Source: Lingula anatina (Eukaryota > Animalia > Brachiopoda). From it: a stretch of 64,000 nucleotides of DNA. A program made the position numbers and the translations under genes. Shown here piece after piece: positions 36,738 through 63,998 of this stretch; the first letter of the stretch is position 1; every line of letters begins with the position of its first letter. Below the pieces are notes generated by a model. The model did no database searches and was not told where the DNA came from. It was given only the letters and a program-made list of their open reading frames with translations. The stretch lies in NCBI GenBank assembly GCA_051362555.1, contig CM120649.1, positions 1,612,001-1,676,000 of the forward strand, read 5' to 3'.

Positions 36738-38849
36738 ATGATGGGATTGTTGTTCTGCCCGAATCTTGCTCTGGCCTTGGTGACGTGCGTCTTTCTCAGC
36801 CAAACTCAGCTGAGTGAAACTTGTAAGTGTACAGAGACCAACTTGACATCCAAGTTCATGTAAATAGTATGTTTCCAATTCTGAGATATGGTATCAATTT
36901 TAGTTTCAGCATTTTGGTCATTCTAAAAATTCCTAGGGCATTCCGACAGCATTCGAAACATACTGATCGCGTTCGAGGGAGAACAGAAATGGCAAGACAC
37001 TGCAAATCCTGCTAGAATGCACCGGAATGCAACTCGAATGCATCTCCATGGCTGGCGAAATCCTATTTCAGCCAGGAATCGAACTACACTACGGTATTTG
37101 AAGTGTATTCTAAATATTCTGACTGCATTCTGAAAGCATTATCGATATTCCTAGTTTTCCACCTGCATTCGAGTTGCATTTGAGAGCTAATACAGCCGAA
37201 ATGTGCTATCATGCTGTTAAATCATCAAAAAAAGGCGACCCTGCTTGTTTTGGCAGTAAATCCTATGAGATGGAGAAAGAACTTTCAGAAGAGGTGTGTT
37301 TGCTATTGATGCTTTGAGTGATACTGAGTCCATTGATTATTTAACATAATTTATCAAATTGACAAATTGCTACAATTGCTACAAAAAAGGACCCATGCAA
37401 TCTCCGTTAGACAAATAATGTTTTATTTAACTAAAAGATACCTTTTAAAACGACTAAAAATTCTACATTGCTATTGACAGAATCTGCCAAACGTGCCAAG
37501 TCAGCCATTTTGTTAGAAAGTATGTCGCGACCTTGCCCTTCCACTGCAAATTGTAAACATTGCATGAGGCACAACTAATCCAATGTCAGCTGTTTTGACA
37601 CTGACACTAAAATATCTTGTAGATATTATTCCGATTATTTTAATGAATGCACCATCTCGAAATATATTTTCTGTGGGTAATTTATTTCCCAAATTTGGTA
37701 TAGATCACTTTTTGCAACTATCATGACTTTTACAGTGTTTATAGCAACCAGTTACATAACGGGGCTGCTTTTTCCAAATTTGGTATCGGATAAATTTCTT
37801 ATCCACTGGATCAGTATCATGCTGTTTATCCAGCCTTTGTGAAACACAAATATATATAGATGATAACTATCCAGAGATAAGAGATTTATACCATGGGTAG
37901 TGTTATCCATAGTCCTATTAAACTAGTTTAAAATATTCAAGTATTCAGTATCAGCCAAGTGCCAACGTACATGTATTTTATTTGATCTCAGCAAAATGTG
38001 GGGAAAACGTCAAGTGTCCTTTCAGTCCGTTCAATGCCCCATTGCCTGGGAACAATGACAACTGCGATTCATTAAATGACCAACTTTGTGTTTGCAACGA
38101 GGGTTACAGTGGGGACGGATTTAACTGCATTAGTAAGTATTATAAAACATTTGGATTTTTGAATAGTTCCGTTTTTTTTTCTAAGCTTTCTATTGTAAGG
38201 CAGGCCAACATTTTGGATACTTAATGAAACAGAACAACGGCATTATTTTTTATAGAGATATAATCAAACACGTTTTGTTGCACGATCACGTTCATTTTAT
38301 GTTTTTGACTCAAATGCTCTGTCATCATTACTTCACTCGTTGATAGCTAGGCGGCACCGAAAATTAACACTTAAGACCGTTGCAAGGACCATATAAGTTG
38401 GTGGTTGAAAAAATAAATGATATAAATATAAATGATAAATTCAGAAATTTAACGTCCGGTAATGTCTATATTAATGGGAACTAATCAAATATTTGGGGAA
38501 AGGGTAGTATGTATTACATAAAGATATGTACTTATATATACGACGTTAATGAAAGTCTGCATGTTCATACGTATTTATTATTGTGCGTTGTTAAGCATTT
38601 GATATGCATGACAATATCTAAAAGTATTTAAAACGTTGAAAGTTCCGAGGGGCTTTCAAAGCCATTATTTCCACATAATTACCAACAATTTCATCTCTCT
38701 GTAATAATCATCATTTTAGTAAAAATGAAAACACTGAAGAATTTTGTTTGTACCTGTATATTACTGAATGCATCAAAATAGGCTCTAATATGAAAACGGC
38801 GTCAAGGTGTAAATAAAACATTTCTTCACTTACAGGATCAACGAAATAA
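36738..38849 (+). CDS. Secreted EGF-like protein paralog A (signal peptide + 1 atypical EGF module), 79 aa
   Basis: Exons 36738-36822, 37992-38132 and 38836-38849: MMGLLFCPNLALALVTCVFLSQTQLSET-SKCGENVKCPFSPFNAPLPGNNDNCDSLNDQLCVCNEGYSGDGFNCI-RSTK*. All introns are phase 1 GT-AG and conserved in the paralogs. Confidence 0.85.
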
Positions 38850-39121
38850 ACACCCAAAAAACGAAATAACTAAAATATACAGGAGAGGATGCACAATTAT
38901 TTGACTAATGTTAGAAAAAAATATATAATAAATATACATTTGGACATTCATTGAAAATTATATCTGAATTAAGGATATCAATTGAAAATAAAATATTTTG
39001 GGCATTACAATTAGTTCTTTTTAATTCTCCACAGTTTTCACATCTAATTTATCTCTGAAAATAAACTAATATGGGCATTGCGTTTGGTTATTTTTACTGC
39101 TTCACCATTTGCTGCACCATT

Positions 39122-40200
39122 TGGTGAGAACACAGGTGATTTAATGGAAACCTGTAAAACGAATAATATACCACGTATGATGTTACTACTCGACTTTGAG
39201 CGGGCATTCGATTCCTGGGAATTTGTCTACAAAGTGTTAGACTATATTAATTCTTGGCATAATTTTAAACACTATATGAAAACATTAAATATTGGTGGGA
39301 GTCTTTGTGTTACACAAAATGGTTTCTTCTCAAGATTTTAATATAGGTCGTGGATGCCGCCAAGGCGACCCAATCACCTTATGTTTTTTTTAAATTTGTG
39401 TGTTGAGATTTTAGCAGTGCTAATTAGAAATAACAAATATAAAAAAGGTACAAAAGTTTAAGAAAAGGAATAAAATGTGCTATCCAGAAAAAATGGCCTG
39501 AAATTATAACGTCAAAAGATATGCTTATTAGACCCTATAGACCAAAGTTAATAGAAGTAAGGCTTAAAGATAAAAAAGGTCAGGGACAATCTACAATATT
39601 CTACTTATGGCTAGTCTGAAAATGCAATGCAAGTCATCATATGCAGTGAAATGGGAAAATAACTTAAATTGGAAGAGAATTTCAATTGGACAATTGTTAA
39701 CAAAAACATATTTTTAAGTACAGAGGAAACAAAATTTAGATGGTTTCAGTATAGAATAGTGCATCAAATTTTGGCAACAAACAGATACTTCTATTGCATT
39801 AAGGTTAAAGATAGTAATGTATGTACCTTTTGTAAAACAGAAGTAGAAAGTATTGAACATCTTTTTTTGTGAATGTATGCTTGTTCAGTATCTATGGGCT
39901 AGATTTTAATCAATTAAAATAAGATGGTTAAATGAATATACAAAAAACAATAATTGAACTAAATAGTCGTGACATTATATTATTCGGCTCTAATAAGATA
40001 GCTTTAAATCAATTAATACTTTTTGTAAAAAATATATAAAATATATATATATATGAAGAGAAGTGAAGAAGCTAAGTTAAATTTTAATGAATTGGAAAAA
40101 ATGATAAGGGCATCATTAATACACTTGTTTCAGAAAGAAGAAGAATGAATGAGGAGTGAGTGAGTGAGCAAGAGAACAATTTACATAATTTGTAACAAAA
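39122..40200 (+). mobile_element. Degenerate, internally deleted L1/Tx1-type LINE fragment inserted just downstream of paralog A
   Basis: RT motifs LLDFERAFDS..WEF and GRGCRQGDP, plus a C-terminal FQYRIVHQILATN...CTFC...ESIEHLF zinc-knuckle region, with stops and frameshifts. Absent at the equivalent site after paralog B (~51160). Ends are approximate. Confidence 0.85.
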
Positions 40201-41111
40201 TTTTCTTTCTGGGAGAATAAATATATCTAAAACAATATAAATCCTTGTCGTACTTATTTAAAATATGAACAGAAATGGATATTGAAGACGTGCTGCGGTT
40301 AATGGAATATTTTTCATGTTTTTAATATTTCAATAACAAATAACATATTGCCTAACTTCGTGTTGGCCACAACAGACTCATAGCCAGCTGCAATAACAGG
40401 TCTATTTTATGGGTATCAGAACATGCTTCGTCAAAGGAATTGCAGGAAGTTATTTACTTTATTGAAGTTCCAACCAGTTTCTGTGTTAGGAAAAATATAT
40501 CTTTATGTTCGGATCAAGTCTGATAATTACTGTCGTACAAACCAAACCATCTTGCTGAGTTTAAATGTCACATAACTTTACAAATATATCACATTGGTAA
40601 TTTTTCTCTTTTCGACTAAATGCCCTTCAATATCAACATATAACTTTAAAAACTTTTAGATGAATATTTATTATATGTAAGGAGGAAGTTTTCTAATTGA
40701 CTTTTTTTTTGGTTTTCTTAAAGGGATAACAACTATTCATTTTGGCCAAATAATGCATTTTCCTTGGGTAAAGGGCAATTTTCCCAAATTTCCCAATGGT
40801 AAATGAATCCATTCCCTAATTCAAAGTTGGTCACTGTTTTCTTTTCTTTTTTTTTTTTTTTTTTTGAATATTCTCTTAAGAAGTTATTACGAAATGTAAC
40901 CATCTACATTGTACATGTACGTAGGTCACGTGATGTGATGACAAGCATAAACTCCATTAATGGACTTTTTGGTGGTAAAATAGAATTTATTATATTGCTA
41001 TGAGTTGTTTGTAATTTATTTATGGTGAAATATGGATATCTTCCGAATAGTTGTTATCCCTTCAACATTTTCAACTACACTTCAAAAGTCAAACCAAAAA
41101 TGATGTATTAT

Positions 41112-42002
41112 CCCAGCAGGCAAATTATGTTGTTTTAACGTTGAAACAACGTTGAACCATAACGTTGAGTAGACATTGAATAAACGTTGGATTTGAAAGT
41201 TGTGTCAACCTCAGATAACAACGTTGTATCAACGTCAGAAAACAATGTTATATCAACCCCACCCAGTGGGACATTAGCCTGGATGTGTTTAGCAGTAGGA
41301 CATGTTTGATAGCTAAATATATGTAGGGTATAAATGTATCACCCTGAGCTTCAGAGATAACTTGACACTAACCTCTTCACTATAGCCTATCTTCATCGTG
41401 TCAAATTACCTCTGACCACATTCGATTGCCTCCGCCGCCCGCCAATCAAATTTAAAGCCCGCACTTAATGACTCATTGAACGATCTAGCCAATGAACGCG
41501 AACGAGTCAAAGCGCGCTTTGTTCAAATCCGGACCAATCAAAGATTAGGCTGAATATCAGGGACTTGCCGTAACCTGTGGGCAGCACGCAAAATACATCA
41601 TCCCTCAGTAGATAATTATGCAGGGCATCAAACTGCTCTGGTTTCAATTCCGATATATTCCATGCTTTCTTTGTGTACGGTTATGCACTCGGAACTACTC
41701 GGATGTCTCCGCACTCGACAATAACTATGTTGTTAGTATGGAGCTTGCGGAATCAGCCGAGGATTGCCGATTGACGGTCAACCAATCAGCGTTTTCACCA
41801 AACTTTGGTGAAAATTTTTGAAACATGGATTCGATTGGCTTATATAAACTAGGTCAAACTATTTTCGTCAGAGGTAACTTGACACGATGAAGATAGGCTA
41901 TAGTGAAGAGGTTAGTGTCAAGTTATCTCTGAAGCTCAGGGTGAAATGTATGGCCTTTAAGTTAGAATTTCCAAGATTTAGATTAATATATATAGTTCGT
42001 TT

Positions 42003-42068
<66 letters not shown>

Positions 42069-42529
42069 TCATCTTAACCTATCTATAATCTATAACATGT
42101 TACCAAGAACTGTTAACTCCATCACATTTACAGCAACTTATTCATCCTAGTATTAGCTGACCTTGCAAGCAATTCAGTTTATTGGAATGCATTTCTGAAT
42201 AACAAGTTAAGAAAATTCAATAGTTAACTAAAGACACAAAACAACTGTCAATTTTACTTTAAAACCATTTTGTTATTATTTTTATGAATTTATTTACAAT
42301 ATTAATAAACAAAGTATCACGTTTTCAATAATTAATATTTTAAATTACAATCCATAACTGCAAGGTTGTGTCATTGACCAAAATACAACGTTGAGTCAAC
42401 GTCACATTATGACGGTGTTTTGACGTGGCTGGATCAACGTTGATTTGACGTTGAATTTAGGTAGATCAACGGCAATTCAACGTATCAACCTGTTTTCAAC
42501 GTTGATCCAACGCAACTATGCCTGCTGGG
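41112..42529. mobile_element. Non-autonomous CACTA/EnSpm-like element
   Basis: TIR cccagcaggca / tgcctgctggg, subterminal caacgttg repeats, 2-bp TSD at; empty site at ~51710 in the next unit. Fragments of the same family lie at 46984-47029 (left end) and ~63420-63534 (right end). Confidence 0.88.
41340..41943. mobile_element. Young MITE with ~75-bp near-perfect TIRs and 8-bp TSD, nested in the CACTA-like element
   Basis: caccctgagcttcagagataacttgacac... / ...gtgtcaagttatctctgaagctcagggtg, with aaatgtat at 41332-41339 and 41944-41951. Confidence 0.92.
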
Positions 42530-45460
42530 ATTCCACTAACACATGTGTTAAACTGTTTTGGCATGGTTTAAGATAATTACCATTTTACTTAATCGGTTAA
42601 TATACTGGGACACGTTACCAAAATGAATTAACATAAAACCTACATGTTACGAGTTCAAAACAATTCATATCTGCAAATGGACAATGTTATCTGAACAACA
42701 TCATATAAACCAAAATTTATTTTGGAAAAAAATTAGCAATTGTCAAGATATAAACCACGTCTTCACTCCAATGATAGTGTCTTTTGTTACTGCAACTGTC
42801 ACTACTGTAATTTTGTCATTTTGGCAAATGTAAAAGTGAACATATTGTTTTGATTTGGTTCGTAGAAAGACATAGTCGTAAACAGTATGGTATATCAGAG
42901 GTCGTTAACAAGAAAATCGCTTTTTTTAGTCATATACTGGAAGAAAGTACATATTATCCAACGCGTCATGGGGTTTCCTTTATGTTTGACTTTGACGTCC
43001 TTTATCAAAGTAGCACTTAAAATAACTGGGTTATGCGAATAAAATAGCTCACGCTTACGAGCGAGAAAGAGGGAGAGAGAGGGAGAGAGAGACCAATGTC
43101 ACGGATAGAAGGATTTGTTTATTTACTCAGATTAAATCGTGTTTGATGACAAAGTCCAAATTCGCATCCAGTATAAACAATGCAGCTTAACAAGCAATTG
43201 TAATTTTTTCATATCATCCAAAGCGTCATACGGGTTTCCATTATTTTTAATTCCGACGGCCTGTATTAAAGTAGCACTGAAATCAACTGGGTGACGCAAA
43301 TAAAATAAAATAGCTAACTGGTATGAGATGCCTTCTTTAGTTTAATGTTTTGATTATTTTGGCTGTTATTCCATCACTGTGTCACACACACAGATACACA
43401 CATACACACGCACGCACACACACTTTACACACACATGACTAAGAGAGTTAAGCTAGCAAAGAGGGGGGTAAAAAAACTGATCAATGGCTGCCACGGATAG
43501 AAGGATATCAAATATTTGATTTAACTGAGCAATATACATATAATATTGCAATGCTGTTATAGACCTTAATGAACTCTGGTTGAATATTTTTGGCTATCTC
43601 TCACTATTTTGCCCCAATCCAGTAGTTGTTGTGGCGCACAGTCACAAACACACGAGAGAATTTCATTAGAAATCTTTATCGTAAGAACTGGGTCAATTCG
43701 ACGGGCAACATAATAATGAAAAAGGGTCAATTCGACGGGCAACATAATAATGAAAAAGACAAACAAATGGTTGGCTAGAGTCTCCTTTACCGCTTTACCT
43801 GAATACTAATATTTGCCAAGCTACGGGAGTGTTAATGGAAGTCACAACCTGTATGAATATTTTCTAGGTCAAATATAAAGTACACGTTTCATGCTGAACG
43901 AAAGAAGCCAATGAAAGACCGACAAATGGCGTGTCATAATAAACTGGGCATCCTATAGTCAAATAAGCACTATCGTGATTGGATAGTTTCTCATGTGCCA
44001 CTTAATTCACGAGATACACTGATGTCCCGGTGCTGGCTGTATATTATAACCAGGAAGTGAGGAGACGTTGCATTTCCTGACCCGACTTCGACGAGTAAAA
44101 AAGGAGGTAAGTTTTATGTTAACTGTGAAATATTCTGAGCGGTGCAATTCTGCAAATTTATGGTAATCCCCTGCACACACCAATTGTTGGCAACTAAGCA
44201 GTGACAACTCTCCCTGTGGTTCTGGAGGTGCTTCCTCTCAAATATGTTGTGTTCATGTTTGACCAGGAATCCAATGAACCTAAATACGAACAAAAAGTGA
44301 TTAAAACAGGAGATGATTACCTTGGTTCAAACTTTGAACGACCGCCTTTTGAATTCTAAGAAAGGAATAATGTCATTTCCCATTTGTTGAAACTATTTCA
44401 ATCATATTAAGAGCAAATTTTATATCAAGTGATTTCATCATACATTTATCGCTACAGACTATCAGGCAAATTGATTTGAAATTTATTGACATTGTACGGG
44501 CGTCCTAATGGACGCTTGTCGATCCTGCAGGTATGCTCTCCAAGTAAAATGGATTATATGCATATCTGCTGAACGAAAAACAGCTGGTATTTACAGAACC
44601 TGCGAATGAGTTGCAAAGTTGGTTTTAACAATATTTGGTCACTAAGATGAACACAATCTTGACTTGATAGGTCCCCATGTGTGTCACGATTATCACAAAG
44701 TACACAGTGACACTGGCAATCCATTCTTATGGTTTTAAAATGTAGTTGTCTGTATGAAACAAATGCATGTAACCACGCTCAAGGAATAGATATCCTTACT
44801 TTTTGTCCTGTGTCAGAACTTGGTCCAAAAGCACCAAAACCAGTTTTATTGCTATGGTTACATAGCTAATTTTTGGCCTATATTTTGAAAATCTTACAAT
44901 TGTTAGGTTTTGAAGCCTTATTAAAGACATTAAACCAAGTAATTATTTTTAAAAAGCCGATTCAGATAAACCGTAGTTTTAACTTTTTGTGGTACTTTTT
45001 GCATTATTAGATGTCCGATGTATCATTTGTCACTTGTATGCGAAGTGTTGTTAAAATTAACATTTTGACCAATTCTTAGAGAGTTTAGTCCCGGAAGTGG
45101 TCCCAGAAGTTTCAGATTTCCTCATAAGTGGGCCATAATAACTTTTTATTTATAGCAAGATGAATAAATCATTTAACGTTTTGTGAACAATGTTTATTTA
45201 TTGTTTTAAAGGGCCAATTTTAACTTTTTCCACATTTTAAATTTTGGAATGTATTTTATTGTGCAATATAACTCAATTAAATTTACAAATTATATATTTA
45301 ATTTGTCTTTAAAGTAGTTTTGAGGAAGTTTATGCTTTAAATTTGTATAAATGGTATGAAATACTGATATTTTCACAGATAGTTTGTATTCTCTCACCAA
45401 TAGTTCTTGTTAGATTTGGTATCTGGAATACAAATTACTGCCTGTACTGTAAGGTCTTCA

Positions 45461-45705: not shown

Positions 45706-46846
45706 TTATTGACTTACTTACTTATTGGTTGTTTATTTGTTGCCTGCAAAAAAGAGATCAATCATTTTTTTACAAGGTCGATGCCTTCTCTCTCCTCTCT
45801 TGGATCCTATCCCATCACAACGCAATGTTTGCCTTGACGGAAGTACAACTATAGCCTCGAAATCCACAAAAGTTTGGTCACCCCATAAAGTGAAGGAGGC
45901 ACTGCACAATTACACATAATATAATTATATTTGATTGTGTAGCTATTCAGGGGATGGTTTTCATTCTTGGAATATCAAAATGACAAAAACTGACATTTTT
46001 AGCGTTTGACACAAAAAATAAATAAATAAATAAAATAAATAAATAGATAAATAAATAAAAATAAAATGTTTATACTCAAATTATGTTGTTACATATTTTA
46101 CCATTGCGACTATCGTACTTTTCAATAAGTGATACTTGTTATCATGAGACTGACGCTATCACTGATACATTGGTGAGCTGTGCTCAGCTCCATAATAAAA
46201 CACGCTGAGTGAGGTCACGGTGTAACTAAATGCTTTGTGAAGTTAAGCATCAATATTGTGTAGAAAGTGAAAAGGTAAATCTTATGATTAAAATGTGCAT
46301 CAGTATATTATTTGTCTTACTATTATTATTATTTTGATTAAATAATATTCCATGAACAAAGTATTCTTCACGTGAAAACTTACAGCAAACAAAGAGTTTC
46401 TGATCAAAAAGCCCTGAAATCTCATGGCAGAGTTTCAGTTTCATCTTTTCTGTCACCTTTACCTAATGATTCCAGCTTATATAAGCTTCTAAGCTGAATG
46501 CGATGTTATTGTAACCAACACCCCACTCCGCAACCATGTTAAATTACATTGGAGACACTGTAAAATTGATAAATCGCTGGCACGCACAGGTAACTGCAAC
46601 GATTTTGGCATAAGGGTTCGGTCGTAAATTGCAATGCTCCCAAAAAAAGATAATATATTGTCGTGTCGCATTGTATGCGTGCCTCATAATCTGTGATGTT
46701 TTCAAAAAAGCATTCCTGAATTAGTTTTAAGATTGTCATACCTGTATGATGATGTTGAAATTTTACCACTTTCTTTTTCTGAACATCTTATTCTATTTCA
46801 GCATAGAAGTGCTATATAGAGTACTATATCCAACATCAACCAATCA

Positions 46847-49823
46847 ATGATGGGATTGTTGTTCTGCCCGAGCCTTGTTCTGGCCTTGATGGCGTGCGTC
46901 TTTCTCAGTCAACCTCAGCTGAGTCAAACTGGTCAGTGTGAAGAGACCAGCTCAACATCCAAGTTTATGTACAATAACATGTTCTCAGCGGGCAAATCAT
47001 GTTGTTTCAACGTTGAAACAGCGTTGAACTACCGTACATGTGTACAGCAAATATTGGAAAACATGTTTACTATTGCAACAATTGATGGCAGCACATATGT
47101 TTCATTTAATATAATGTTTCCATTATCAGTGTGTCTTTTAACAGGTGGGCATTTTGTACAAAATGAATTCCATAGATGTCAGTTACCCTGATTAGTAAAT
47201 GCTTAAAATATAAAAATTGAAATATGTAAACTGAAATAGCATGCGTAGCATTTTATAAACCTTAATTGTAATATCCTCATTTCAGGTTTGTGCGAATTCA
47301 GTAACTGCTTGAATGGTGCAACGTGTGCAGAAGATACTACAAATTCGAAAACCCGGTGCATTTGTCCCGAGGGATATAAAGGACCATCGTGCGAAATAGG
47401 TAAACCGTGCTTTTCTAATACTGTATATATTGTGTATCTCAGTATTGAAAGATAACAACAAATAGCTCTAAGTTGTGAATCATGCAGCAAAAGAAATTAC
47501 AAAACAAATTTACCAGCGCAAAAATTGATACCAGAAGATAGTAGCAAGAATCAGTAATAGACTTCTATAGACTGATAGACTGATACTAAGCCATATAGCT
47601 CTAGATTTCTGTTTATTAATTATAATGCAACTAAAATATTCAGGTGATACGGTGGACGTTATGAAAATGCGTCATGAAATAACGTCCATTAAGGCGGTTT
47701 AAAATTTCAAGTATCTTTTCAAATTACAGTATTTATTTGTTTTCAGCACAATGTGGGGAAAACGCCCAGTGCACTTACGCGCTGATTGATTTTCCAATGC
47801 CTGGGCACAATGACAACTGCGATTCATTAAGTAATGAACGTTGTGTTTGTAATGACGGTTACAGTGGGGATGGAATCAACTGCACTAGTAAGTCTTAGGC
47901 CGTATTCAGAACAGTGGAATAACTAGTCTGCTGGTCAAATGTGGCCGACCCACTTGAATACTTCCCCCTAATCTACGCAGTGTCTATTAGTGGATTGGAA
48001 GGTAGCGTTATTTGAACCATAGACTAATTAGTCCACTCTTCTTTGTCCCTCGGGACAAATGCACCAGGACAAATGCACCAGTTATTTTGGTACAGCAGAA
48101 GTTAGCTGAAATCATAACCTTAAAATAACCTAGGATCGACTCCCTCTCCCTCATGGACAGCCCAATCTACAGTTTCACAAAAGCTCTAAGTGCTCATGCA
48201 CACCCCTAGTGATAAGTATACCAAATTCCTTAAGTTTGAACTTTCTCAATCTAATGATCGAGGAAGAAAAAGCAGAAATTACGATATAGAAAAAGAAAAA
48301 ATAATAATATCAATCACCTCCGGGGACAGTCCAATCCCAAGTGTTACTAAATCTCAGTAATGCTCATGTACATCTTTGGCAAAAGATATTCTAATTACCA
48401 ATGTTTGAAATTTCTCAGCCTTTTTGTCTAGGAGACAACCGAACCAAGGGACAACCGAACCAAGGGACAGCCCAACCCCCTGTTGCAGTAAATTTCTGTG
48501 CAGGGATGCCCATGCACACTATTTAAGCTATCAAGAATACAATGTAAATATAAATAAGAATCCCCACCAACACTGACAAATCAAATCCCAGTTGAACTTA
48601 AATCTTCAGGTCTAATTATTCCCAAAGTTTAAACTTCCTTACCCTTATGGTCAAGGAGGAGTTAGCTGAAATTTCAAGTTAAAAAGAATTTGTTATCATC
48701 CAACTCCCAGGGACATGCCACCACACAATTCACTATGAAATTCCAAAGTCACCATGCACATGCTTCATAAAACAATAGGAAGGTCTACCATTACCGAAAT
48801 TTCCTCACTCTTGTGCTACAAGAGGGGATGGCAAAAATTACAATGTAAAGGGAATTAAGAATCAGAAGCAACTTCTTTTGTCTAAGAGGTGTGGGGATAA
48901 CAAGCAATCAATTTTGTCAAATGCAACGTTGTTTTGTCACTGATTACTATTTAACATAATGATAAGCCTGATAAAAATAATGAAATCTAAAAAAAGCAGT
49001 CTTACCCTGACCGTAACAATTTTAGGCCATTGTGGTAAATTATATCGACTTATCATAGACTGTGTTCCCATACATAGATCGATCCATCTGGATAACCGAC
49101 TTAAATATCTGTCATGCCTACCAAATCAGCTAGGGGGTAAGGATAAATACCCCCTTACAGCATTACTAGGCGTGACAGACATTTAAGCCGGCCAAGTTGA
49201 CAGTATTTTAGTGAGACTCTCTAGGGAGATAGATAGATCTAAATATCTGTGGGAATGGTCCCATAGTCAGCAATCAGATCTTTAGGAGTCTAAACTTAGA
49301 CCCATTGCGTTAAGATTTATTTATTTATTTATTCATTTATTTATTTTCCCCGCTCTTTGGTGACAAAATTCAAAGATATATTTTCCCGCCCGTCCGATAT
49401 TTTATGTTTTTGAGAGGACTTTTATTGTTTTTAATCGGCAAAATGGTAGATGCATTCTTGAATTAAAAAAAAAAAAATAATAAAAACATGTTCTGTGTTA
49501 TGATGATCAAAAACCTTTGAGTAACCTAAGAGTGCTAATAGGTAGTATTTTTTTTTGCTCCAGACATCTCACACGATGTCAATGAAAAACCAATTAAACT
49601 AGGCCGACTCTTAACAGTATGGGAAGTGCGGGGATGTGTGATGGCTACCCATTGTCGCCATCTAGTTGTGTATGAAACACGTCCCAGATAATTTGCTTCT
49701 TGTCTGGAGAAAACGATAGCCAATTCACAAGGGTACTTTTTAGAGTGAGAGAAAAAAAGGCGAGTTGAAGATTCTAATCAAGAGATAACAACACTCTAGC
49801 CAGTTGCAATATAGCATCTTTAT

Positions 49824-49900: not shown

Positions 49901-50951
49901 TTTTATTTTGAGTTTGGTTTATAAAAATAACTTTAGAAATTTGACGTCAGATAATGCCTATATCAACGGAATCTGATCAAACATTTGAGTAATGGAATAA
50001 ACATGCATGCATAACATTAAAATATGTACATAACATACAAGATTTATGTAAGTCTGTTCATTTAATATGGAAAAATGTGAAAGTACTTTAACACGTCAAA
50101 AGTTACAAGGAGCTCCAAAATAACATTGTTTCTATCATATTTATCATCACATTCATCTTATCATTTTTAATTAAGAAATAAACACTGAATTAATTTGCAA
50201 AAATGTTTATCAGCTTGGTAGCTGGATCATAAATGAAAATTATCAAACACAAGCCTAGAAAAATGGCTAACCGTTAGCTTTCCGTTGTGGGACAGGTAGA
50301 CAATATAAGACCAGGGTTAGTGGGGCGGATCCAGAGATATTTTCTGACAGTCTTCCAAAGTATATTTGCTGATTCATCGTCCATTTTTGACCGCCTTCCG
50401 ACAGAAAAAATTATAGCCATCAATATAAACTTGGAAATCTGACCGTCTTCCGGAAGACCCAGAAGACGGCCTCAATCCGCTCCTGATATAGACAATACCA
50501 GCTCTGTCATTTCTAAACATGTAATAAACACCGACCACAGTACTGACTGGAATTCAACCAAGATCCTTGAATCCGACTCGTCTGATATCCTACGTAAGAT
50601 ACAAGAGGCTATCAACATCAGCCGTCACCAGCCACCCATGAATAGGGTCGGGAAGGTCGATCTACCTGACATTTATAAGAGGGTCGTGGCCTCTATATAC
50701 TATAAAGTCAAACTTAAAATGATGACAGTGAGTATCAACATCTACGTACTCACGTCAGTCTGATGAAGGCCAACGTCCACGTTGGCCGAAAGCTAACAGT
50801 ATGAACGTTTTCTCGGCTTGTGTTTGATAATTTTCATTTAAGACTGAATAAATGTGTTTGTATATTACTGAATGCACAATGTGCTCTGATAAAAAACGGG
50901 GTCAAGGTGTCCATTAAACATATTTCTTTTCTTTCAGAATCGACGAAATAA
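46847..50951 (+). CDS. Secreted EGF-like protein paralog B (signal peptide + 2 EGF modules), 117 aa
   Basis: Exons 46847-46931, 47286-47399 (LCEFSNCLNGATCAEDTTNSKTRCICPEGYKGPSCEI), 47747-47887 (QCGENAQCTYALIDFPMPGHNDNCDSLSNERCVCNDGYSGDGINCT) and 50938-50951 (KSTK*); all introns phase 1. Confidence 0.9.
49826..49896. repeat. (TA)n microsatellite; others at ~42005-42065 and ~11672-11702
   Basis: Direct inspection. Confidence 0.95.
50331..50485. mobile_element. MITE (ggggcggatccagagata... family; inverted copy ending at ~27123)
   Basis: Ends ggggcggat / atccgctcctg. The left end matches the reverse complement of 27103-27123. Confidence 0.6.
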
Positions 50952-51181
50952 ACACCGGGAAAATGAAATAACAACCAAAAAAAAAAAAATGCAAGACAGG
51001 ATACACAGTTATTTGATTAATTTAAGAACCAACATTTTAATAAATATTCATTTGGACATTCATTGAAAATTATATATGAATCATGAAGTATTTTAATTGA
51101 TAATAAACTAATTTGGGCATTGCATTTGGTTCTTTATACTGCTCCACATTTTGCTGCTCCACATTTGTTTTGATATTTATG

Positions 51182-54457: not shown

Positions 54458-55809
54458 CATTCCAAGGATGGAAGGATTTGTTTATTTGTTTATTTACTCG
54501 TTTGTTTTATTTACTAAATCGTGTTTGATGACAAATTCCAAATTTGCATTCAGAATAAGCAATGCGACCTAACAAGCATCGCTTTTCATATAGTCATATG
54601 GTGGAAGTAATTTCATATCATCCAAAGCGTCATACGGGTTTCCATTATTTTTAATTCCTACGGCCTGTATCAAAGTAGCACTGAAATCAGCTGGGTGACG
54701 CAAATAAAATAAAATAGTTAACTGGTGTGAGATGCCTTCTTTAGTTTAATGTTTTGATTATTTTGGCTGTTATTCCATCACTGTGTCACACACGCACACA
54801 CACACACACACACACGGCAAAGAGAGTTGAGCTAGCAAAGATGAGAATAAAAGAACTGATCGATGACTGCCACGGATAGAAGGATATATAATATTTGATT
54901 TAACTGAGCAATACAAATATAATATTGCAATATAGACCTTAATGAACTCTGGTTGAATATTTTTGGCTATCTCTCACTATCTTTCCCCAATCCAGTAGTT
55001 TTTGTGGCGCACAGACACAAACACACGAGAGAGAGAGAGAGAGACTTAATTTCATCAGAAATCTTTATCGTAAGAACTGGGTCAATTCCACGGGCAACAT
55101 AACAATGAAAAAGACAAATTGTTGGCTAGAGTCTCATTTACCGCTTTACCTCAATATTAATATTTGCCAAGTTACGGGAGTGTTAATGGAAATCACGACC
55201 TGTATGAAGATTTTCTAGGTCAAATATAAAAATACACGCTTCATGCTGAACGAAAAAAGCCAATGAAAGACCGGCAAATGGCGTGTGATAATAAACTGGG
55301 TATCCTATAGTCAAATAAGCGCTATCGTGATTGGATAGTTTCTCATGTGCCACGTTATTCACGAGATACGCTGATGTCCCAGTGCTGGAAGTGAGGAGTG
55401 AGGAGACGTTGCATTTCCTGACCCGACTTCGACGAGAAAAAAGAAGGTAAGTTTTATGTTAACTGTGAAATATTCTGATCGGTGTAATTCTGCAAATTTA
55501 TGGTGATCCCCTGCACACACCAATTGTTGGCAACTAAGCAGTGACAACTCTCTCTGTGGTTCTGGAGGTGCTTCCTCTCAAATATGTGTTGTTCATGTTT
55601 GACCAGGAATCCAATGAACCTAAATACGAACAAAGAGTGATTAAAACAGGAGATGATTACCTTGGTTCAAACTTTGAACAACCGCCTTTTGAATTCTAAG
55701 AAAGGAATAATGTCATTTTCCATTTGTTGAAACTATTTCAATCATATAAAGTGCAAATTTTATTTCAAGTGATTTCATCATACATTTATCGCTACAGATT
55801 ATCAGACAA

Positions 55810-57050: not shown

Positions 57051-57419
57051 CATTTTTTTTTTATTTCTGAAAGAGTTCCAGAAGTGGTGCTTTGTAAAGT
57101 TTTAGATTCCTAATACGTGGATCAAAATAAGATTTGATTATTCATAGCAAGAAGAGCAAATCCTCTATCGTTTTATCAACTATGTTCATTTATCCATTTA
57201 GGAGGCCAGATTGAAATTTCTCAATATTTCCAATTTTCGTATATATTTTATAGTGCCTGACTCAAATCAATTTAAAAATTTAATATGTTATTGGTCATGA
57301 GGGTAGTTTTGAGGAGGTTGATGTTTTAAATTTGTAAAAATGGTGTGAAATATTGGTATCTTCACAGGTACTTTGTATTTTGACAACCATATGTCTTGTT
57401 ATTTTTGGTATCTGGAAAA

Positions 57420-57948
57420 ATAAATAATAATAATATTTATTTATAGTCTTAACTCCAACATATGTTCAATAGACTTTACAGAATATATAAAATTCACAAT
57501 TAAAAGAAAAAAAGATACTAATGGTCATAAAATGAAAGAAGGAAAATGATAGAAGAAAAATTGTTTAAGTTATAAAATAGATATATAAAATGGTTTAGAG
57601 GTGAAAATTAAAACTATGAACTAAGAAACAATTCTTACAAGAATTCAAAAATAATATTGCATAAAAAGGTAGGTTTTAAGTTCCTTTTTAAAATGTCCAG
57701 GGTCTACAATTTGTCTATGGTTGATGGGTAAATTATTCCATTCTCTAGGTGCTGTAATTTTAAAAGCCTTGTCACCGTATGACACCATGCAATCTTGCCT
57801 TACACGCCTTAAAAAGAAGGTACTCACCTGATCTAAGATTTCTTGCTGATGTATAATGTGAAACAAGCTCATTTGAATAAAAGGGTGCAAGTTAATAAAA
57901 TGCTGCATGTGCAAACGTTAAAAGTGCAACTTCATTAAAACAGGGGCG

Positions 57949-57950
<2 letters not shown>
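57420..57950 (-). mobile_element. 3' fragment of an L2/CR1-clade LINE
   Basis: IAPVLMKLH remnant and YGDKAFKITAPREWNNLP...FKKELKTYLF (typical L2 ORF2 C-terminus), followed by a simple-repeat tail. Confidence 0.85.
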
Positions 57951-58007
<57 letters not shown>

Positions 58008-59469
58008 TTTTATTTATTTTTTATTTTTTTAGTGCTGTCAGTAGGAGAACAGATATGCTCTGTACATGAGCACTATCTAAAACAGTTTACAATTGTACGG
58101 TCATCAATTATTATTATATAATTATGTTTTAACTTTATTTCCATTTATTATAGAGACAAACGCTTCACAAATAGCAGTGTCATAGCATTATTTTTACTTC
58201 AGCTTATTCATTTCCTTATGAAGGGGGGCATCCTTCTTTCAGTTTTCATTGGATTATTAATGAAAGTTTATTTATTTATTTACCTATTTATTGACCTATT
58301 TATTGTTTGTTTGTTTGTTGCTTGCAAATATAGCAATCAAGTATTTGCGATGTCAATGAATTCCACTTCCTTTCTTGACATCTTTGCAATCACAACGCAA
58401 TATTTACGTAGACGGAAGTATAATTATAGCTTCAAACTAGACAAAAGTTGAGTCGTGCCATAAAATGAAAAAGACATTGCACAATTACACATAATGTAGT
58501 TATATTTGATTGTGTAGCTAATCAATATATTACAGGTACTTTCATTCTTGGGATATCAAAATTACAAATATTGACATTTTATGCGTTTGACACCACTAAA
58601 ATTCCAAAATCATATTATTTGTAATATATCTATGTTGTTACATATTTTATAATCCCACCATTCAATGCGCGATGCTTGTTATCATGAGACTGATGCTATT
58701 GCTGATACATTGATGAGTAGTACTCAGCCTCATAAGATAAAACACGCTGAGGGGGATAACGGTGTAACTGAATGCTGAGTGAGGTTTAGCTTCAATTTTG
58801 TGTAAAAAGTGAAAAGGTAAATCTTATTATTATTATCGATATACTGCACAGATCAATTGACTTAGCTATTTTTTTAAATGTTTAATGTTGAAAAATGTTA
58901 TGCATAATATGATAAAACATGATTTTATAAAATGTGCATCAGTGTATTTTTTGTCTTTTTCTTCTTCTTATTATTACTATTATTAAATAGTATTCCATGA
59001 ACAAAGTATTCTTCACGTGAAAATTTACAGCAAACAAAAAGATTCTGATCGAAAAGCCTTGAGATCCCACGGCAGAGTTTAAGTTTCATCTTTTCTGTCG
59101 GATTTACAGAATGATACCATATCTTATATAAGCTACCAAGCTGAGCAATATGTTATCGTGACCAGCACTTGATGCCATCTTAAATTACATTGGACGCTCT
59201 GTAAAAATGATGAATCACGCACACGCACAGTTAACTGCAACGATGTTGCCATGAGCATTCGGTTGCAAATTGCAATGCACCTGAAAAAAGATAATATATT
59301 GTCATATCGCATTGTTTACGTGCCTCGTAATCTGTGATATTTTCAAGAAAGCAAGCCCGATTTAGTTTAAAGATTGTCACCTGTATGATGATGTTGAAAT
59401 CTGAATATCTTATTCTATTCCAGCATAGAAGTGCTATAAAAGAGTACTATATCGAACATCAACCAATCA

Positions 59470-62400
59470 ATGATGGGATTGTTGTTCTGCCCGAGTCTTG
59501 TACTGGCCTTGATAGCGTGCGTCTTTCTCAGTCAAACTCATCTGAGTCTAACATGTAAGTGTATAGATACCAGCTTGACATCCAAGCCCTTACGGAACTT
59601 TCCTATAGGATCCTATAGGGCACCTTCCCATAAGATTTCCTATAGGATATTATAAGATTTCCTTATAGGGTTCTATAAGATTTCCTATAGGATCCTATAG
59701 GAAAATGGGACAATTTCCTATAGGAAATTATATAGGAAATCTTATAGGAAATCCTATAGGAAATCCTAAATTTTCGTAAGAGAGTTCATGTACAGTAGCA
59801 TGTTTGCAATTCTGAGATACAATGTCAATTTTCGTTTCAGCATTTTGGTCTCAACATTGCTTGTTTGCAACAATCATATGCCTGTTTTTATGGATCTTTT
59901 CAATTCTAAGTCATTCCCACCTTCCTGCGGAGAATGCAATCCAAGCTGCGGTATATCCGCCTCTTGTAGTTAAGAATCCACAATAACCATCACTGCCATA
60001 TGACTAGGTATTTTCCTTACTTCAATCTTAATATACTGAGTGCTAAGCGAGGAGACAGCCGATATTATTATTATAATGGCCTTTGGTATGACCAGGCCAT
60101 GGTGTGGACACTTTATACCTGTAAATCATTTAGACGTGGTCCAGGCGTTCAAGGCGTTATAGTGTAAAAACGATAAGATATGCATGATTTATCTATTCAA
60201 ATTGTTTGAATTTCAAAAAGTAATTAAACTATATGTGTGAAATATTAGAGCATGCCTGATATTTAAATTGCCTTATAACATCTATTTTCAGTCGGATGCG
60301 AGTCTAACAGTTGCTATAATGGTGGGTTTTGTGATGATAAACCTGACGATCCGTCTGGCTTTCATTGCATTTGCTTTGATAAGCATTTCGGAGAGAGATG
60401 CGAATTGCGTAAGCAATGCCCTTGTGACGTTTACTAGCCTCCTTTGTCGATAACAGGGAGTAGTTATGTATAGCAAAATATTAGAAAACAAGTTTACTTT
60501 TGCAACGATTGATGGCAACATATATGTTTCATTTAATATCATTTATCCATTATCAGTGTGTCTTTTAACAGGTGGACATTTTGTACAAAATGAATTCCAT
60601 AAATATCAGTTACCCTGATTAGTAACCTGTGCAATGCTTAAAATATAAAAACTGAAATATCTAAACTGAAATAGCATGCGTAGCATTTTATAAACCTTAA
60701 TTGTAATATCCTCATTTCAGGTAATTGCAAATGGGGTTACTGCTTCAATGGTGCAACGTGTGCAACAAATACTACAAATTCGAAACAGTTGTGTATTTGT
60801 CCCGAGGGTTGTAATGGAAAAATGTGCGAAATAGGTAAACCGTGCCTTTCTAATACTGCATGCATTCTGTATCTGAGTATTTAAGGATAACAATTAATAG
60901 CACTAAGTTGTGAAGCATGCAGCAAAAGAAATTACAAAACAAATTTACCAGCGCAAAATTGATGCCAGAAGATAGTAACAAGAACCAGTAATAGTAACTT
61001 CTATAGACTGATATTAAGCCATATGGCTCTAGATCTCTGTTTGTTAATTACAATACAACTAACATATTCAGGTGATAAGGTGGACGTTATGAAAATGCGT
61101 CATGAAATGACGTCCATTAAGGTGGTTTAAAAGTTTAATTTTTTATTTTTGCAGGCAAGTGTCAACGTACATTTTTTTATTTGTTTTCAGCACAATGTGG
61201 GGAAAACGCCCACTGCCAATACAAGCCGCATAAAATTCCATTGCCTGGGAAAAATGACAGCTGCAATGCATCAAATCATGAAGGTTGTGTTTGCAACGAG
61301 GGTTACAGCGGGGATGGAATCAACTGCACTAGTAAGTCTTAGGCCGTATTCAGAACAGTGGACTAACAAGTATGCCGGTCAAATGTGGCCGACCCACTTA
61401 AATATTTCCCCTTAATCTACTCAGTGTCTATTAGTGGATTGGACGGTCGCGTTATTTGACGCCTAGGCTATAGTTAGTCGACTCTTCTGATTGAATAGTT
61501 ATTTTGGTATAGCAGAAGTTAGCTGAAATCATAACCTGGCAACCGTTTCACAAAAAAACTTAAGTCGGTTTCCCTGACTAAGAGCTTGGTTACCAACGTA
61601 ATTAAGTCGTTACGGCACTAAGTCCCGTTTCACAAAGAATCTAAAAGGTCGCTTACGTCGTTTTTTTCTTAGCTGCTAGTCGACGATGTCTAGCCTCCTC
61701 GGGAGGAGCCTTAAGTCGGCAAGCTCAACTAAAACTCGGTAAATGAGAGCATAAACAACAAAAAATTGGAAAGAACATACCTCCTTCACGATATTGTGTT
61801 ATGATATCCTTGAATAGCACTGAAATTTATGGAATATTGAAATTAAAAATAAAATGCCACTTCACCCAGCCGATGGCGTGTTTGTTTATGTTTTTGACCA
61901 CTAGACATCCTTCAGCAGTGTTCCACGACAAGCTAATGTTTAACTGATTAGTAAAACTAATCAATAAAGTTCAAAAACAAACTTTGTTTGTGTTTTGGCT
62001 GATTTTTATTGTTGATAAACGATCGTTCTCGGCCGAGAGAGGCCATAAAATGTCATGTCTTGTGAAACTTTTGAAATTTTAAACCTCCTTTTCTTGAAGA
62101 GTTTCTCGTGCGCGTCGACTACGGTAAGCACACCAAGCTACGACTTTAGATTCTTTGTGAAACACTCCTAGTAGACTGCAGCGTAGTCGACCCAGCTAGG
62201 CCATTCAGTTCGAGCTAGTCAACTACGGATTTAATATTATTTGTGAAACGGGGGCCTGAAATAACTTAGAATCGACTCCCCCCCCTCGAGGACAGCCCAA
62301 TCTACTGTTTCACAAAAGAAAAACAAGGGCTCATGCACACCCCTAGTGATAAGTCTACCAAATTCCTAAAGTTAAATCTTTCTCACTCTAATGATCCAGG

Positions 62401-63998
62401 AAGAAAAAGCAGAAATTACGACGCAGAAAAAGGAAAAAAATACAATAATATCAATCACCCCCGGTGACAGTCCAATCCCAAGTGTTACTAAAACCCCGTA
62501 ATGCTCATGTACATGCTTGATAAAAGATATTCTAATTACCAATGTTTGAAATTTCTCAGCCTGTTAGTCTAGGAGACGAAGGAAAACACAAGGTATTACA
62601 AGAAGGATCAACCGCACCCAGGGACAGCCCAACCCCATGTTGCAGTAAATTTCTGTGCAGGGATGCCTATGCACACAATTTAAGCTGTCAAAAACACAAT
62701 GTAAATATAATTAAGAATCGCCACCCACACTGACAAATCAAATCCCAGCTGTACTAAAATCCTCATGTGCGAAACTCAGGTCTAATTATCCCCAAGGCTT
62801 AAACTTCCTCACGCTTATGGTCAAGGGGGAGTTAGCTGAAATTTCAAGTTAAAAAGAATTTGTTATCATTCAACTCCCAGGGACATGCCGCCACACAATC
62901 CACTATGAAATTCCAAAGTCACCATGCACATGATTCATTAAAAATATTAAAGTCTATCAATACCAAAATTATCTCACTCTTGTGCTACAAGAGGGGATGG
63001 CAAAAATTACAGTGTAAAAGGAATTGAGAATCAGAAGCGACGTCTTTTGTCTAAAAGGTGCGGGCATAACAAGCAATCAATTTTGTCAAGTGCAATGTTG
63101 TTTTGTCACCGATAACCATTTAACGTCATGATAAGCCTGATAAAATCACGAAATCAAATAGCCGTCTTACCTTGACCGGTGTAACAGTAATCAAAAGCCC
63201 CCTACGGACCTCGGTTCCTGGTAATGGTTGTCCGTAGGACTAACATTACTAGGGAATAATAGTCCTGCAGGGACTTAGGTTCCTGGCTCAGAATTAGAGT
63301 AGGTAGGACTTGTATTACTGTCGGACTTTCATTCCTATTTCATTCCTATGACGGTAATACAAGTCCGGCCATTTGAAAGTCCTATCTTTAGGCAATAATA
63401 CGGATAAATGAAAAAAACGGTGTTTTGACGTGGCTGGAGCAACATTGATTTTACGTTGAATTTAGGTAAATCAACGGCAATTCAACATATCTACCTGTTT
63501 TCAACGTTGATCCAACGTCACTATGCCTGCTGGGAGGGTGAATGAACACAGAAAACCAATGACTGTATATTGGCAATACCAGATCTGCCATTTCTAAACG
63601 TGTAATAAATACCAGTCACAGTACTGTCTGGAATTCAACTAAGATCCTTGAATCCAAGTCATCTGATATCCTACGTTAGATACGAGAGGTTATCAACATC
63701 AGCCGTCACCAGCCACCCATGAATAGGGTCGGGAAGGACAATCTACCTGACATTTATAAGAGGGCCGTGGCCACATATTGGTCACTGAGTATCAACATCT
63801 GCTCAAGTCATTCTGATAAAGGCCTTCATCCAGGTTGGCCGGAAGCTTCCAGTAGTTTTCTAGGCTTGTGTTTGAAAATATTCATTTACTACTTTATAAA
63901 TGTGTTTGTATATTACTGACTACGCAATGTGCTCTAGTAAAAACGGGGTCAAGGTGTCCATAAAATATATTTCTTTTCTTTCAGAATCGGCGGAATAA
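59470..63998 (+). CDS. Secreted EGF-like protein paralog C (signal peptide + 3 EGF modules), 156 aa
   Basis: Exons 59470-59554, 60292-60408 (GCESNSCYNGGFCDDKPDDPSGFHCICFDKHFGERCEL), 60721-60834 (NCKWGYCFNGATCATNTTNSKQLCICPEGCNGKMCEI), 61191-61331 (QCGENAHCQYKPHKIPLPGKNDSCNASNHEGCVCNEGYSGDGINCT) and 63985-63998 (KSAE*); all phase 1 GT-AG. Confidence 0.9.
59587..59782. mobile_element. CACTA-like MITE made of tcctatagga palindromes, in intron 1 of paralog C
   Basis: TIR cccttacgga / ttcgtaagag with 2-bp TSD ag. Empty site catccaagttcatg in paralog A (~36847) and an equivalent in B. Confidence 0.9.
61539..62255. mobile_element. PIF/Harbinger-like MITE in the last intron of paralog C
   Basis: TIR gcaaccgtttcacaaa / tttgtgaaacgggggc with 3-bp TSD ctg. 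Absent at the equivalent site in paralog B (~48120). Confidence 0.85.

Follow-up and report, generated by a model that had tools for sequence, protein, structure and literature searches.

Small, probably secreted EGF-only proteins in Lingula anatina: a tandem array from a dispersed family with a long-loop module of predicted altered disulfide pairing

Introduction

Few small secreted proteins consist of EGF modules alone, and the examples that have been studied act as toxins, growth factors or matrix proteins. In the sea-urchin EGIP precursor, tandem EGF repeats alternate with dibasic cleavage sites; mussel foot protein 2 has approximately 11 EGF repeats with many Tyr/DOPA and Lys residues. 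The egg coats of ascidians contain polymorphic proteins with EGF repeats. Delta, Jagged and Crumbs proteins are recognized by DSL or laminin-G domains together with a transmembrane segment. In ErbB ligands a splice site lies between Cys4 and Cys5 and the EGF module is found beside a transmembrane segment (excerpts of PMC1618406). Ant and sea-anemone EGF-like venom peptides (Mg1a; Stichodactyla) comprise a signal peptide and then the EGF peptide, with no anchor (excerpts of PMC8851504). Here, an array of EGF-module genes was analyzed in 64,000 nucleotides of the Lingula anatina genome (GCA_051362555.1, contig CM120649.1, positions 1,612,001 to 1,676,000), a stretch referred to below as the window.

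Results

Three paralogous genes, A, B and C, lie on the same strand; each starts its coding sequence in a signal exon, continues with EGF exons of phase 1-1 and closes with an exon of 14 nt. This arrangement, with products of 79 (A), 117 (B) and 156 aa (C), had been proposed in an earlier note, and all exons, splice ends and phases were verified: exon ends are AG/GT throughout, phases close, and coding lengths are 240, 354 and 471 nt, respectively. The note's statement that each module is a single phase 1-1 exon holds for all six EGF exons, which are 114, 117 or 141 nt (multiples of three). The features are as follows.

36738-36822, 37992-38132, 38836-38849, plus strand: coding exons of gene A (exon and phase check)
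46847-46931, 47286-47399, 47747-47887, 50938-50951, plus strand: coding exons of gene B (exon and phase check)
59470-59554, 60292-60408, 60721-60834, 61191-61331, 63985-63998, plus strand: coding exons of gene C (exon and phase check)
34690-34753, plus strand: putative non-coding first exon of gene A (5' end approximate; donor after 34753, conserved in the duplicated promoter block)
36692-36822, plus strand: signal exon of gene A (46 nt of UTR, ATG at 36738, 28 codons, phase-1 donor)
37992-38132, plus strand: E3 of gene A, a long-loop (L type) EGF module (phase 1-1, six cysteines spaced 5-15-7-1-10)
38836-38849, plus strand: 14-nt terminal coding exon of gene A with stop (AATAAA at 38927; no RNA support in four runs)
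44040-44106, plus strand: putative non-coding first exon of gene B (5' end approximate; donor after 44106)
46802-46931, plus strand: signal exon of gene B (ATG at 46847)
47286-47399, plus strand: canonical EGF module E2 of gene B (O-fucose consensus; PF00008 at 28.1 bits against a cut-off of 21.5)
47747-47887, plus strand: long-loop EGF module E3 of gene B (used for structure prediction)
50938-50951, plus strand: 14-nt terminal coding exon of gene B (AATAAA at 51039)
55390-55446, plus strand: putative non-coding first exon of gene C (5' end approximate; donor after 55446)
59424-59554, plus strand: signal exon of gene C (ATG at 59470; matches XP_013390330; two RNA reads join it to E1)
60292-60408, plus strand: canonical EGF module E1 of gene C (Pfam, XP_013390330 match, RNA reads)
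60721-60834, plus strand: EGF module E2 of gene C, with a seventh cysteine
61191-61331, plus strand: long-loop EGF module E3 of gene C (XP_013390330 match)
61870-61904, plus strand: alternative last exon of gene C (RefSeq model), inside an element at 61627-62163 with 19-bp inverted ends
63985-63998, plus strand: 14-nt terminal coding exon of gene C (homologous to the last exons of A and B; no junction reads in four runs)
32466-33178, minus strand: decayed copy D (E1-like 3' part at about 33110-33178; E2-like exon at 32466-32566)

Each ATG codon is preceded by 45 to 46 nt of an internal exon and by in-frame stops, and the putative non-coding first exon is found further 5'. That of gene A is preceded by a TATA-like motif, and no RNA support for it was found in the four runs searched. 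The last exon encodes four residues and the stop. As the note had claimed, there is no dibasic site or transmembrane segment: dibasic pairs number zero in all six modules, and the sole hydrophobic stretch of each protein is N-terminal (11-residue Kyte-Doolittle maxima of 2.9 to 3.4). A helix is predicted at residues 8 to 21 in the leader of XP_013390330, the one part used of a poor whole-protein model (pLDDT 54). Judged from sequence, the three products are likely secreted. EGF-clan Pfam matches were obtained for all six modules, the curated cut-off being passed by E2 of gene B only.

This anatomy is not due to chance: A, B and C can be aligned with one another for kilobases, through their introns as well, and C corresponds to a public gene model. 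One long multi-EGF or membrane protein was rejected as the main product, as a separate promoter block, signal exon and stop are present in every unit, with a poly(A) signal in A and B; rare read-through splicing may still occur.

The public model, XP_013390330 (L. anatina, automatically named "delta-like 4"), differs from gene C at 2 of 149 compared residues and is gene C or a near-identical copy. It ends in a different last exon (61870-61904), its tail extending 12 residues beyond the last cysteine. The array belongs to a dispersed family of at least seven RefSeq loci on at least seven scaffolds, with two to five complete modules (XP_013390330, XP_013415194, XP_013385403, XP_013418649-51, XP_013382190, XP_013418876 and XP_013386451). 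These models share S and L modules with A, B and C, have a leader related to theirs, and carry automatic names only (delta-like 4, adhesive plaque matrix protein 2, crumbs-like, jagged-1a, stabilin-2, jagged-1-like and WIF1-like). Their architectures are LLSLL, SLL, SSLLL, SLLL, SLS, SS plus a partial L, SSLSS and SSL; every member thus has at least one L module, partial in one, and gene A is the L module alone. For A and B, the searches returned no matching public protein model.

End-to-end matches to the shared module E3 were confined to Lingula proteins (3 of 82 matches), and two bacterial matches among those 82 were dismissed as chance matches to a repeat. In the ESM Atlas, all that was retrieved was generic EGF clusters, with best scores of 0.89 and 0.90. 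Six RefSeq accessions of the family returned no papers in a literature search, in which no paper on the family or its cysteine arrangement was found either, most subscription papers being outside its scope. The sequence comparisons support the view that these small secreted EGF-only proteins form a family restricted to the lineage, which is unstudied and is misnamed in RefSeq. The earlier note had not recognized the family; no characterized match emerged, but RefSeq models already existed under misleading names. Such names could mislead inventories of Notch or Wnt pathways.

The three-module order recurs in XP_013418876 and XP_013386451 and, as its E1-E2 part, in copy D, and was therefore taken to be ancestral. 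Copy D, a fourth copy spanning about 32100 to 33600 on the minus strand, contains stops and a frame change, and no signal or E3 exon was found in it. Gene A retains the equivalent of positions 59805-59850 of gene C, a segment missing from gene B; thus A did not arise from B by further loss, and the two represent separate deletions. A gene unit of approximately 10 kb was duplicated in tandem, with separate deletions taking E1 from B and both E1 and E2 from A, and the phase 1-1 exons preserved the reading frame. Elsewhere in the family, RefSeq models show that modules were gained and shuffled, as LLSLL, SSLSS and SLS indicate gain by duplication, and isoform X3 of another member is without one module, as skipping predicts. 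The origin by in-frame exon loss that the note proposed is thereby supported in part, with two deletions in place of a single graded series and with gains in other members. Module trees built with corrected module boundaries had no starred branch and give no order of duplication; the groupings noted were E2 (93/95) and the window E3 modules with XP_013386451 (90/98). Exon gain and loss is in itself a familiar process.

When B and C were compared, E2 and E3 differed at 36 of the 166 sites that are first or second in a codon, against 58 of 711 positions in three flanking introns (P = 2.6e-6), a baseline that may be low because of gene conversion or the choice of alignable blocks. Third codon positions of the same exons differed at 15 of 83 sites and the upstream intron at 14%; in the signal exon, only 2 of 56 first and second positions differed. 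The comparison of B with C gave dN/dS values of 1.99 and 1.58, the excess of dN being nonsignificant (P = 0.32), and those for E3 in comparisons with A were 0.50 and 0.70. Among the three E3 modules, 17 of the 23 positions from Cys8 to Cys32 are variable, and 6 of 23 outside (P = 0.003), although in most proteins the loops are more variable than the cysteine scaffold. The module exons of B and C have thus changed faster than the surrounding introns, with variation among A, B and C concentrated in the hairpin insertion.

A mostly neutral birth and death process, in which weakly expressed duplicates drift to decay and A and B are intact-looking but silent deletion derivatives, would agree with the nonsignificant dN/dS test, the decayed copy adjoining the array, the lack of RNA support for A in the runs searched and the failure to return a public model for A or B. 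We regard it as very unlikely, since none of the three genes has lost a cysteine, a splice site, the 14-nt exon or its open frame despite exon divergence of 18 to 23%, and the signal exons are conserved at first and second codon positions.

The oddest part of the array, the cysteine arrangement of E3, was overlooked by the earlier reader. A canonical EGF domain has six cysteines bonded 1-3, 2-4 and 5-6, and E1 and E2 have canonical cysteine spacing. In E3, modeling suggests that the canonical Cys1 is absent and that an extra cysteine lies in a 15-residue hairpin insertion. The first two cysteines would be canonical Cys2 and Cys3, and the hairpin cysteine would replace Cys1, pinning the 15-residue loop; the predicted disulfides are 1-4/2-3/5-6. 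The AlphaFold model of B E3 (pLDDT 87) has strands at 6-10 and 30-34, which places Cys8 in the first hairpin strand. Its structural matches (among them NELL1, chicken NEL and nidogen-1) have low Z scores (2.0 to 3.7) and span 30 to 33 of 46 residues, as with NELL1 486-516 (31 contiguous residues; Z 3.3; rmsd 1.9); this equals a Cys2-to-Cys6 span plus a 15-residue insertion. In 128 proteins outside the family, a Cys4-x-Cys5 pair was found after the motif C-x2-N-[ASG]-x-C in 355 cases (24 more had none), and in 354 of them no other cysteine came in between, whereas one or more extra cysteines intervened in 12 of 17 family cases. Contrary to the rewired reading, Pfam and HMMER alignments put the third cysteine of E3 at canonical Cys3. 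A PDB sequence search with B E3 gave no match at E values up to 10, and an E3 profile gave one weak PDB match, to thrombomodulin (E = 2.4). The Foldseek search that the note had suggested gave no match at E below 0.001.

As the best structural neighbors are NELL EGF repeats, which bind Robo3, the proteins could act within Lingula itself, as paracrine ligands of its EGFR, Notch, Robo or other receptors or as decoys for them. The signal plus EGF-only architecture, the Gly-x-Arg before Cys6 in E1 and the O-fucose consensus in E2 would suit such a role, which we nevertheless consider improbable: Z scores near 3 denote fold likeness only, A and B do without E1, and conservation is the rule for developmental ligands, whereas this family has no end-to-end match outside Lingula. 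The ErbB-ligand hallmarks given in excerpts of PMC1618406, an intron between Cys4 and Cys5 and a nearby membrane anchor, are also absent.

RNA evidence was sparse. Seven of nine listed runs were searched, each read to 6 to 26%, four of them against gene C and four against gene A; most matching reads were repeat-derived. Expression of A and C was near zero in the seven runs. In the four runs searched for gene C, two reads from a single run supported one junction (signal exon to E1) and no reads joined its 14-nt terminal exon (63985-63998); in the four searched for gene A, there was no junction or exon-level support. No exon-skipping junction was seen among reads matched to A and C, and a search of sequencing runs with gene B returned no matching RNA run. 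The splicing predicted in the note is thus supported by reads at one junction of C, and the reads gave no support for A or for exon skipping; A or B may be silent.

The near absence of reads, together with fast exon divergence, fits stage-limited expression equally well, and A, B and C could be surface proteins of gametes or embryos (from the egg coat, the sperm or the fertilization envelope) evolving fast under gamete recognition or sexual conflict, for which the ascidian egg-coat proteins offer a precedent. This appears unlikely, as the proteins are very short, and neither the Pfam matches of the exons nor the domains precomputed for RefSeq members include ZP or another coat-forming domain.

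A 2026 supplement of the Lingula shell proteome (PMC13425148) was searched with nine RefSeq family accessions, A and B having none; 0 of 9 occurred, while a control accession occurred 21 times. This speaks against a structural or adhesive role in mucus, cuticle, pedicle or shell matrix that would resemble that of mussel foot protein 2, the degree of cross-linking being set by the number of modules. The automatic name of one member, the 3 to 7 Tyr per module in some dispersed members and the unpaired seventh cysteine of C E2 would favor that role, as would the shuffling of EGF domains into Lingula shell collagens (excerpts of PMC4595640). Window modules, however, have 1 or 2 Tyr and mostly net negative charge (-6 to +1), the one-module protein A would be a poor cross-linker, and matrix proteins are usually abundant, whereas A and C transcripts were scarce in the runs examined; we judge the chance of a structural role to be small.

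Discussion

The reading we favor, at a probability of roughly 40%, is that A, B and C are small secreted binding proteins whose last module is a rewired EGF fold with a variable loop, and that they recognize or block outside targets such as microbes, parasites or predators, the defensive role being suggested by the evolutionary pattern alone. The loop would form the binding surface, canonical EGF modules may act as spacers or add avidity, duplication and selection would widen the target range, and expression may be restricted or inducible. Doubtful, in our estimate, is an EGF-derived display scaffold in which Cys1 was lost and its bond re-closed from the hairpin (1-4/2-3/5-6), the loop is hypervariable, and exon gain, loss and skipping with positive selection built a repertoire for immunity or chemical defense. 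If true, it would be an undescribed effector family in brachiopods. Where the note had proposed a lineage-specific effector, toxin or ligand, lineage restriction and the secreted EGF-only architecture stand, effector and ligand roles are conjectural, and "toxin" found no direct support; Lingula is a suspension feeder with no known venom apparatus.

The predicted cysteine relocation gives a clear example, amenable to testing, of how disulfides may be rewired in a widespread fold, gene A providing a natural stand-alone peptide of about 50 residues that carries the module. A disulfide-pinned variable loop, if present, would be a candidate scaffold for binder design.

Among known systems, a Delta, Jagged or Crumbs identity was rejected: no DSL or laminin-G Pfam hit was found in the exons of A, B and C or in the precomputed domains of RefSeq members, and family proteins are only 79 to 255 aa. 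ErbB ligands share the EGF fold, but the Cys1-Cys2 spacing of 4 here is that of Notch-type repeats; hallmarks of EGFR ligands such as EGF, Spitz or Vein are lacking, each module being one exon with no Cys4-Cys5 intron and no transmembrane anchor being present. Gene A alone shares the layout of venom peptides, a signal directly followed by one EGF module with no anchor. Those peptides mimic ErbB ligands, whereas the single module of A is of L type without Arg before Cys6, a residue found in C E1 only and missing from E2 and all E3, and B and C are multi-module. Resemblance to ErbB-mimic toxins was rejected on this absence, the E3 spacing of 5-15-7-1-10 and the lack of a PDB sequence match for B E3. 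The EGIP precursor and mussel foot protein 2 are, like A, B and C, secreted proteins mostly of EGF repeats, A, B and C having only one to three modules; the EGIP type was rejected for want of dibasic pairs, and the foot protein type for the few modules, the charge and the low Tyr and Lys content. The closest folds of E3 are the EGF_3-type repeats of NELL1/2, nidogen-1, thrombospondin-2 and Plasmodium MSP1-19, with which it shares the motifs C-x2-N-A-x-C and C-x-C-x2-G-Y-x-G-D-G. Compared with these repeats, E3 begins at their Cys2, carries 15 extra hairpin residues and an extra cysteine, and stands alone in a small protein.

Gene models of the tandem paralogs

The sequence from 29500 to 64000 of the window was read and every exon was translated on its own, which exactly confirmed the exon models first proposed for A, B, and C, three tandem same-strand paralogs encoding small EGF-module proteins of 79, 117, and 156 aa, respectively. 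Each EGF module (E1, E2, or E3, the last common to all three genes) is a single exon; all six are phase 1-1, as the earlier note had stated, and no dibasic pair lies inside any module.

Exons of genes A, B, and C, from exon translation
36738-36822, plus strand, gene A signal exon
37992-38132, plus strand, gene A E3
38836-38849, plus strand, gene A 14-nt last exon
46847-46931, plus strand, gene B signal exon
47286-47399, plus strand, gene B E2
47747-47887, plus strand, gene B E3
50938-50951, plus strand, gene B last exon
59470-59554, plus strand, gene C signal exon
60292-60408, plus strand, gene C E1
60721-60834, plus strand, gene C E2
61191-61331, plus strand, gene C E3
63985-63998, plus strand, gene C last exon

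The three units align with one another for kilobases, a 2-kb promoter block being among the aligned parts. The ATG of each sits 45 to 46 nt inside an internal exon and has an in-frame stop upstream of it; 2.0 to 4.0 kb further 5' of this exon, a conserved donor points to a putative noncoding first exon. In A and B, but not in C (55360-55446), a TATA-like motif precedes the first exon. The first coding intron of C holds a short-unit tandem array (59587-59782) that is absent from A and B. E2 of gene C (60721-60834) contains seven cysteines, as does the RefSeq copy, and the unpaired cysteine could permit dimers.

The RefSeq model corresponding to gene C or a near-identical copy, XP_013390330, terminates with an exon at 61870-61904, which lies inside an element that has 19-bp inverted repeats at its ends. 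Judged from sequence, the 14-nt exon common to A, B, and C seems a likelier ancestral end than this predicted exon. The element (61627-62163, in the last intron of C) has perfect 19-bp inverted ends and attracts repeat-like RNA reads. Three further stretches (39150-39900, 50443-50763, and 63567-63780) look, by eye, like decayed coding remnants of retroelements; the latter two are homologous and lie within introns of B and C. Elsewhere, the window carries an F-box plus SPRY exon (10714-11376, minus strand), presumably FBXO45-like; exons, possibly in tandem, that are similar to the luminal domains of lysosome-associated membrane glycoproteins (21770-25696, plus strand; PF01299, E = 0.0006 for one of three); and an exon with an Abhydrolase_3 domain, from a gene for an esterase or deacetylase (28341-28667, minus strand).

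Family members and distribution

Searching with a profile built from the E3 modules of A, B, and C gave three matches among 26 candidates, two of them Lingula anatina RefSeq proteins. By-eye comparison of XP_013390330 with gene C revealed differences at 2 of 149 residues over four exons, which assigns the window to Lingula. Further searches and look-ups identified nine RefSeq records from seven loci, on contigs that all differ in length; two of the loci share >90% of their sequence and may be redundant. With S denoting a canonical EGF module and L a long-loop E3-type module, the layouts are LLSLL, SLL, SSLLL, SLS, SS plus a partial L, SSLSS, and SSL, to which the window adds L (gene A) and SL (gene B). 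Isoform X3 of the SSLLL locus is SLLL, one module shorter, as would be expected from the exon skipping that the phase 1-1 exons had been said to allow. The RefSeq names (delta-like, jagged, crumbs, stabilin, WIF1-like, and adhesive plaque protein) are similarity labels, and the precomputed Pfam domains of these members are EGF only. XP_013418876 and XP_013386451 have an additional cysteine ahead of E1. The leader of XP_013382190 (P0100) is almost identical to that of gene B, with E1-like, L, and E1-like modules behind it, a combination suggestive of a recent exchange of modules among loci.

Using the E3 profile, 82 proteins were found at E values up to 0.001 among 1.84 billion representatives, and the three that matched at least 45 of the 46 profile positions were all from Lingula. 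The family is Lingula-restricted in the sense that it was not detected elsewhere in these searches, and other brachiopods are probably poorly represented in the sequences searched. It is real and apparently undescribed: no paper describing it was found by a literature search whose reach excluded most subscription papers and bioRxiv supplements.

Origin of the module series

The order signal-E1-E2-E3 also occurs in XP_013418876 and XP_013386451, and D, a decayed fourth copy, retains E1-intron-E2 with 68 to 74% identity to C, which together make three modules the ancestral state here. B lacks the equivalent of C 59805-60466, which holds E1, and A lacks that of 59851-61111, which holds E1 and E2. 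A keeps the equivalent of C 59805-59850, which is gone from B. A and B are best read, on this alignment, as products of two separate deletions and not of a stepwise ladder; the in-frame exon loss first proposed stands. No E1 or E2 remnants were found in the introns of A and B. As modules are duplicated at other loci, the family employs gain, loss and, at the one RefSeq locus, skipping; the graded architecture itself is ordinary exon loss. D, on the minus strand (32100-33600), is oriented head to head with the array and retains a portion of E1 together with a disrupted E2; promoter-like blocks continue from it to about 35500.

Cysteines of the L module

The L module has a cysteine spacing of 5-15-7-1-10 and falls below all Pfam cut-offs. 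HMM alignments place its third cysteine at canonical Cys3, whereas a structural model and a motif test favor a different cysteine. In the AlphaFold model of gene B E3, built from an 8-sequence alignment (pLDDT, 87; pTM, 0.59; five models spanning 69 to 87), strands at 6-10 and 30-34 would put the second cysteine at the Cys3 site. Structural alignments to seven chains covered 30 to 33 of 46 residues at low Z scores (2.0 to 3.7). In three chains, 31 contiguous residues aligned (NELL1 486-516, chicken NEL 492-522, and nidogen-1 366-396), a span running from one before Cys2 to one after Cys6 of this EGF subtype and thus implying 15 inserted residues. The range aligned in MSP1-19 (11-42) is consistent with its Cys2 and Cys6 at residues 12 and 41. 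In 128 nonfamily proteins, the pair Cys4-x-Cys5 came immediately after the motif C-x2-N-[ASG]-x-C in 354 of 355 cases, a count that leaves aside 24 more nonfamily cases with no such pair nearby. One or two additional cysteines occur in the 21- to 23-residue loop in 12 of 17 family cases, and the predicted mature chain of gene A has no cysteine ahead of the module. On the simplest interpretation, Cys1 has been lost and its place is taken by a cysteine of the loop, with predicted 1-4, 2-3, and 5-6 bonds.

Rate of change and expression

Between B and C, first and second codon positions of E2 plus E3 differ at 36 of 166 sites (22%), compared with 58 of 711 aligned sites (8%) in the three flanking introns (P = 2.6e-6); the signal exon differs at 2 of 56 such positions. 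The B-C dN/dS ratio reaches 1.99 in E2 and 1.58 in E3. Weighing against this are the lack of a significant difference between dN and dS (P = 0.32), third codon positions that likewise differ at 15 of 83, an upstream intron that differs by 14%, and E3 dN/dS ratios of 0.50 and 0.70 when gene A is one of the pair. In the three genes taken together, 17 of the 23 positions that separate cysteine 2 from cysteine 4 are variable, versus 6 of 23 outside. Diversifying selection on the modules is suggested by these comparisons but not proven. The predicted cysteine relocation and the hints of rapid change are the aspects worth pursuing.

A sequencing-run search turned up nine RNA runs carrying the species label, and no indexed RNA run that contained the gene B query. 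RNA reads bore out one predicted junction, that between the signal exon and E1 of C, and none of gene A. The former was found at the predicted place in two reads of one of four runs (X1), with the first mate on the minus strand and altered letters at the exon end; E1, E2, and E3 of C had no coverage in the other three. For gene A, four runs (X1, X2, X3, and X8) contained no joint, and reads over E3 or over the terminal exon were nearly absent. These figures rest on 6 to 26% of each run.

Function and comparison with known systems

The best fit for A, B, and C is as arms-race binding proteins (probability of roughly 0.4), given a short secreted product, an odd module that is always retained, a variable loop predicted to be disulfide pinned, copy birth and death, and low baseline expression. 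That they are reproductive proteins is a lesser possibility. A matrix or adhesive role is rather unlikely, and its shell-matrix form is weakened by the supplement of PMC13425148, which contains none of the nine RefSeq accessions and a control accession 21 times. An endogenous ligand or decoy is likewise rather unlikely, and neutral decay is improbable. The ErbB-ligand criteria of PMC1618406 speak against that identity. Ant and anemone venom peptides have a signal-plus-EGF layout, according to PMC8851504; gene A shares this layout but not their resemblance to ErbB ligands.
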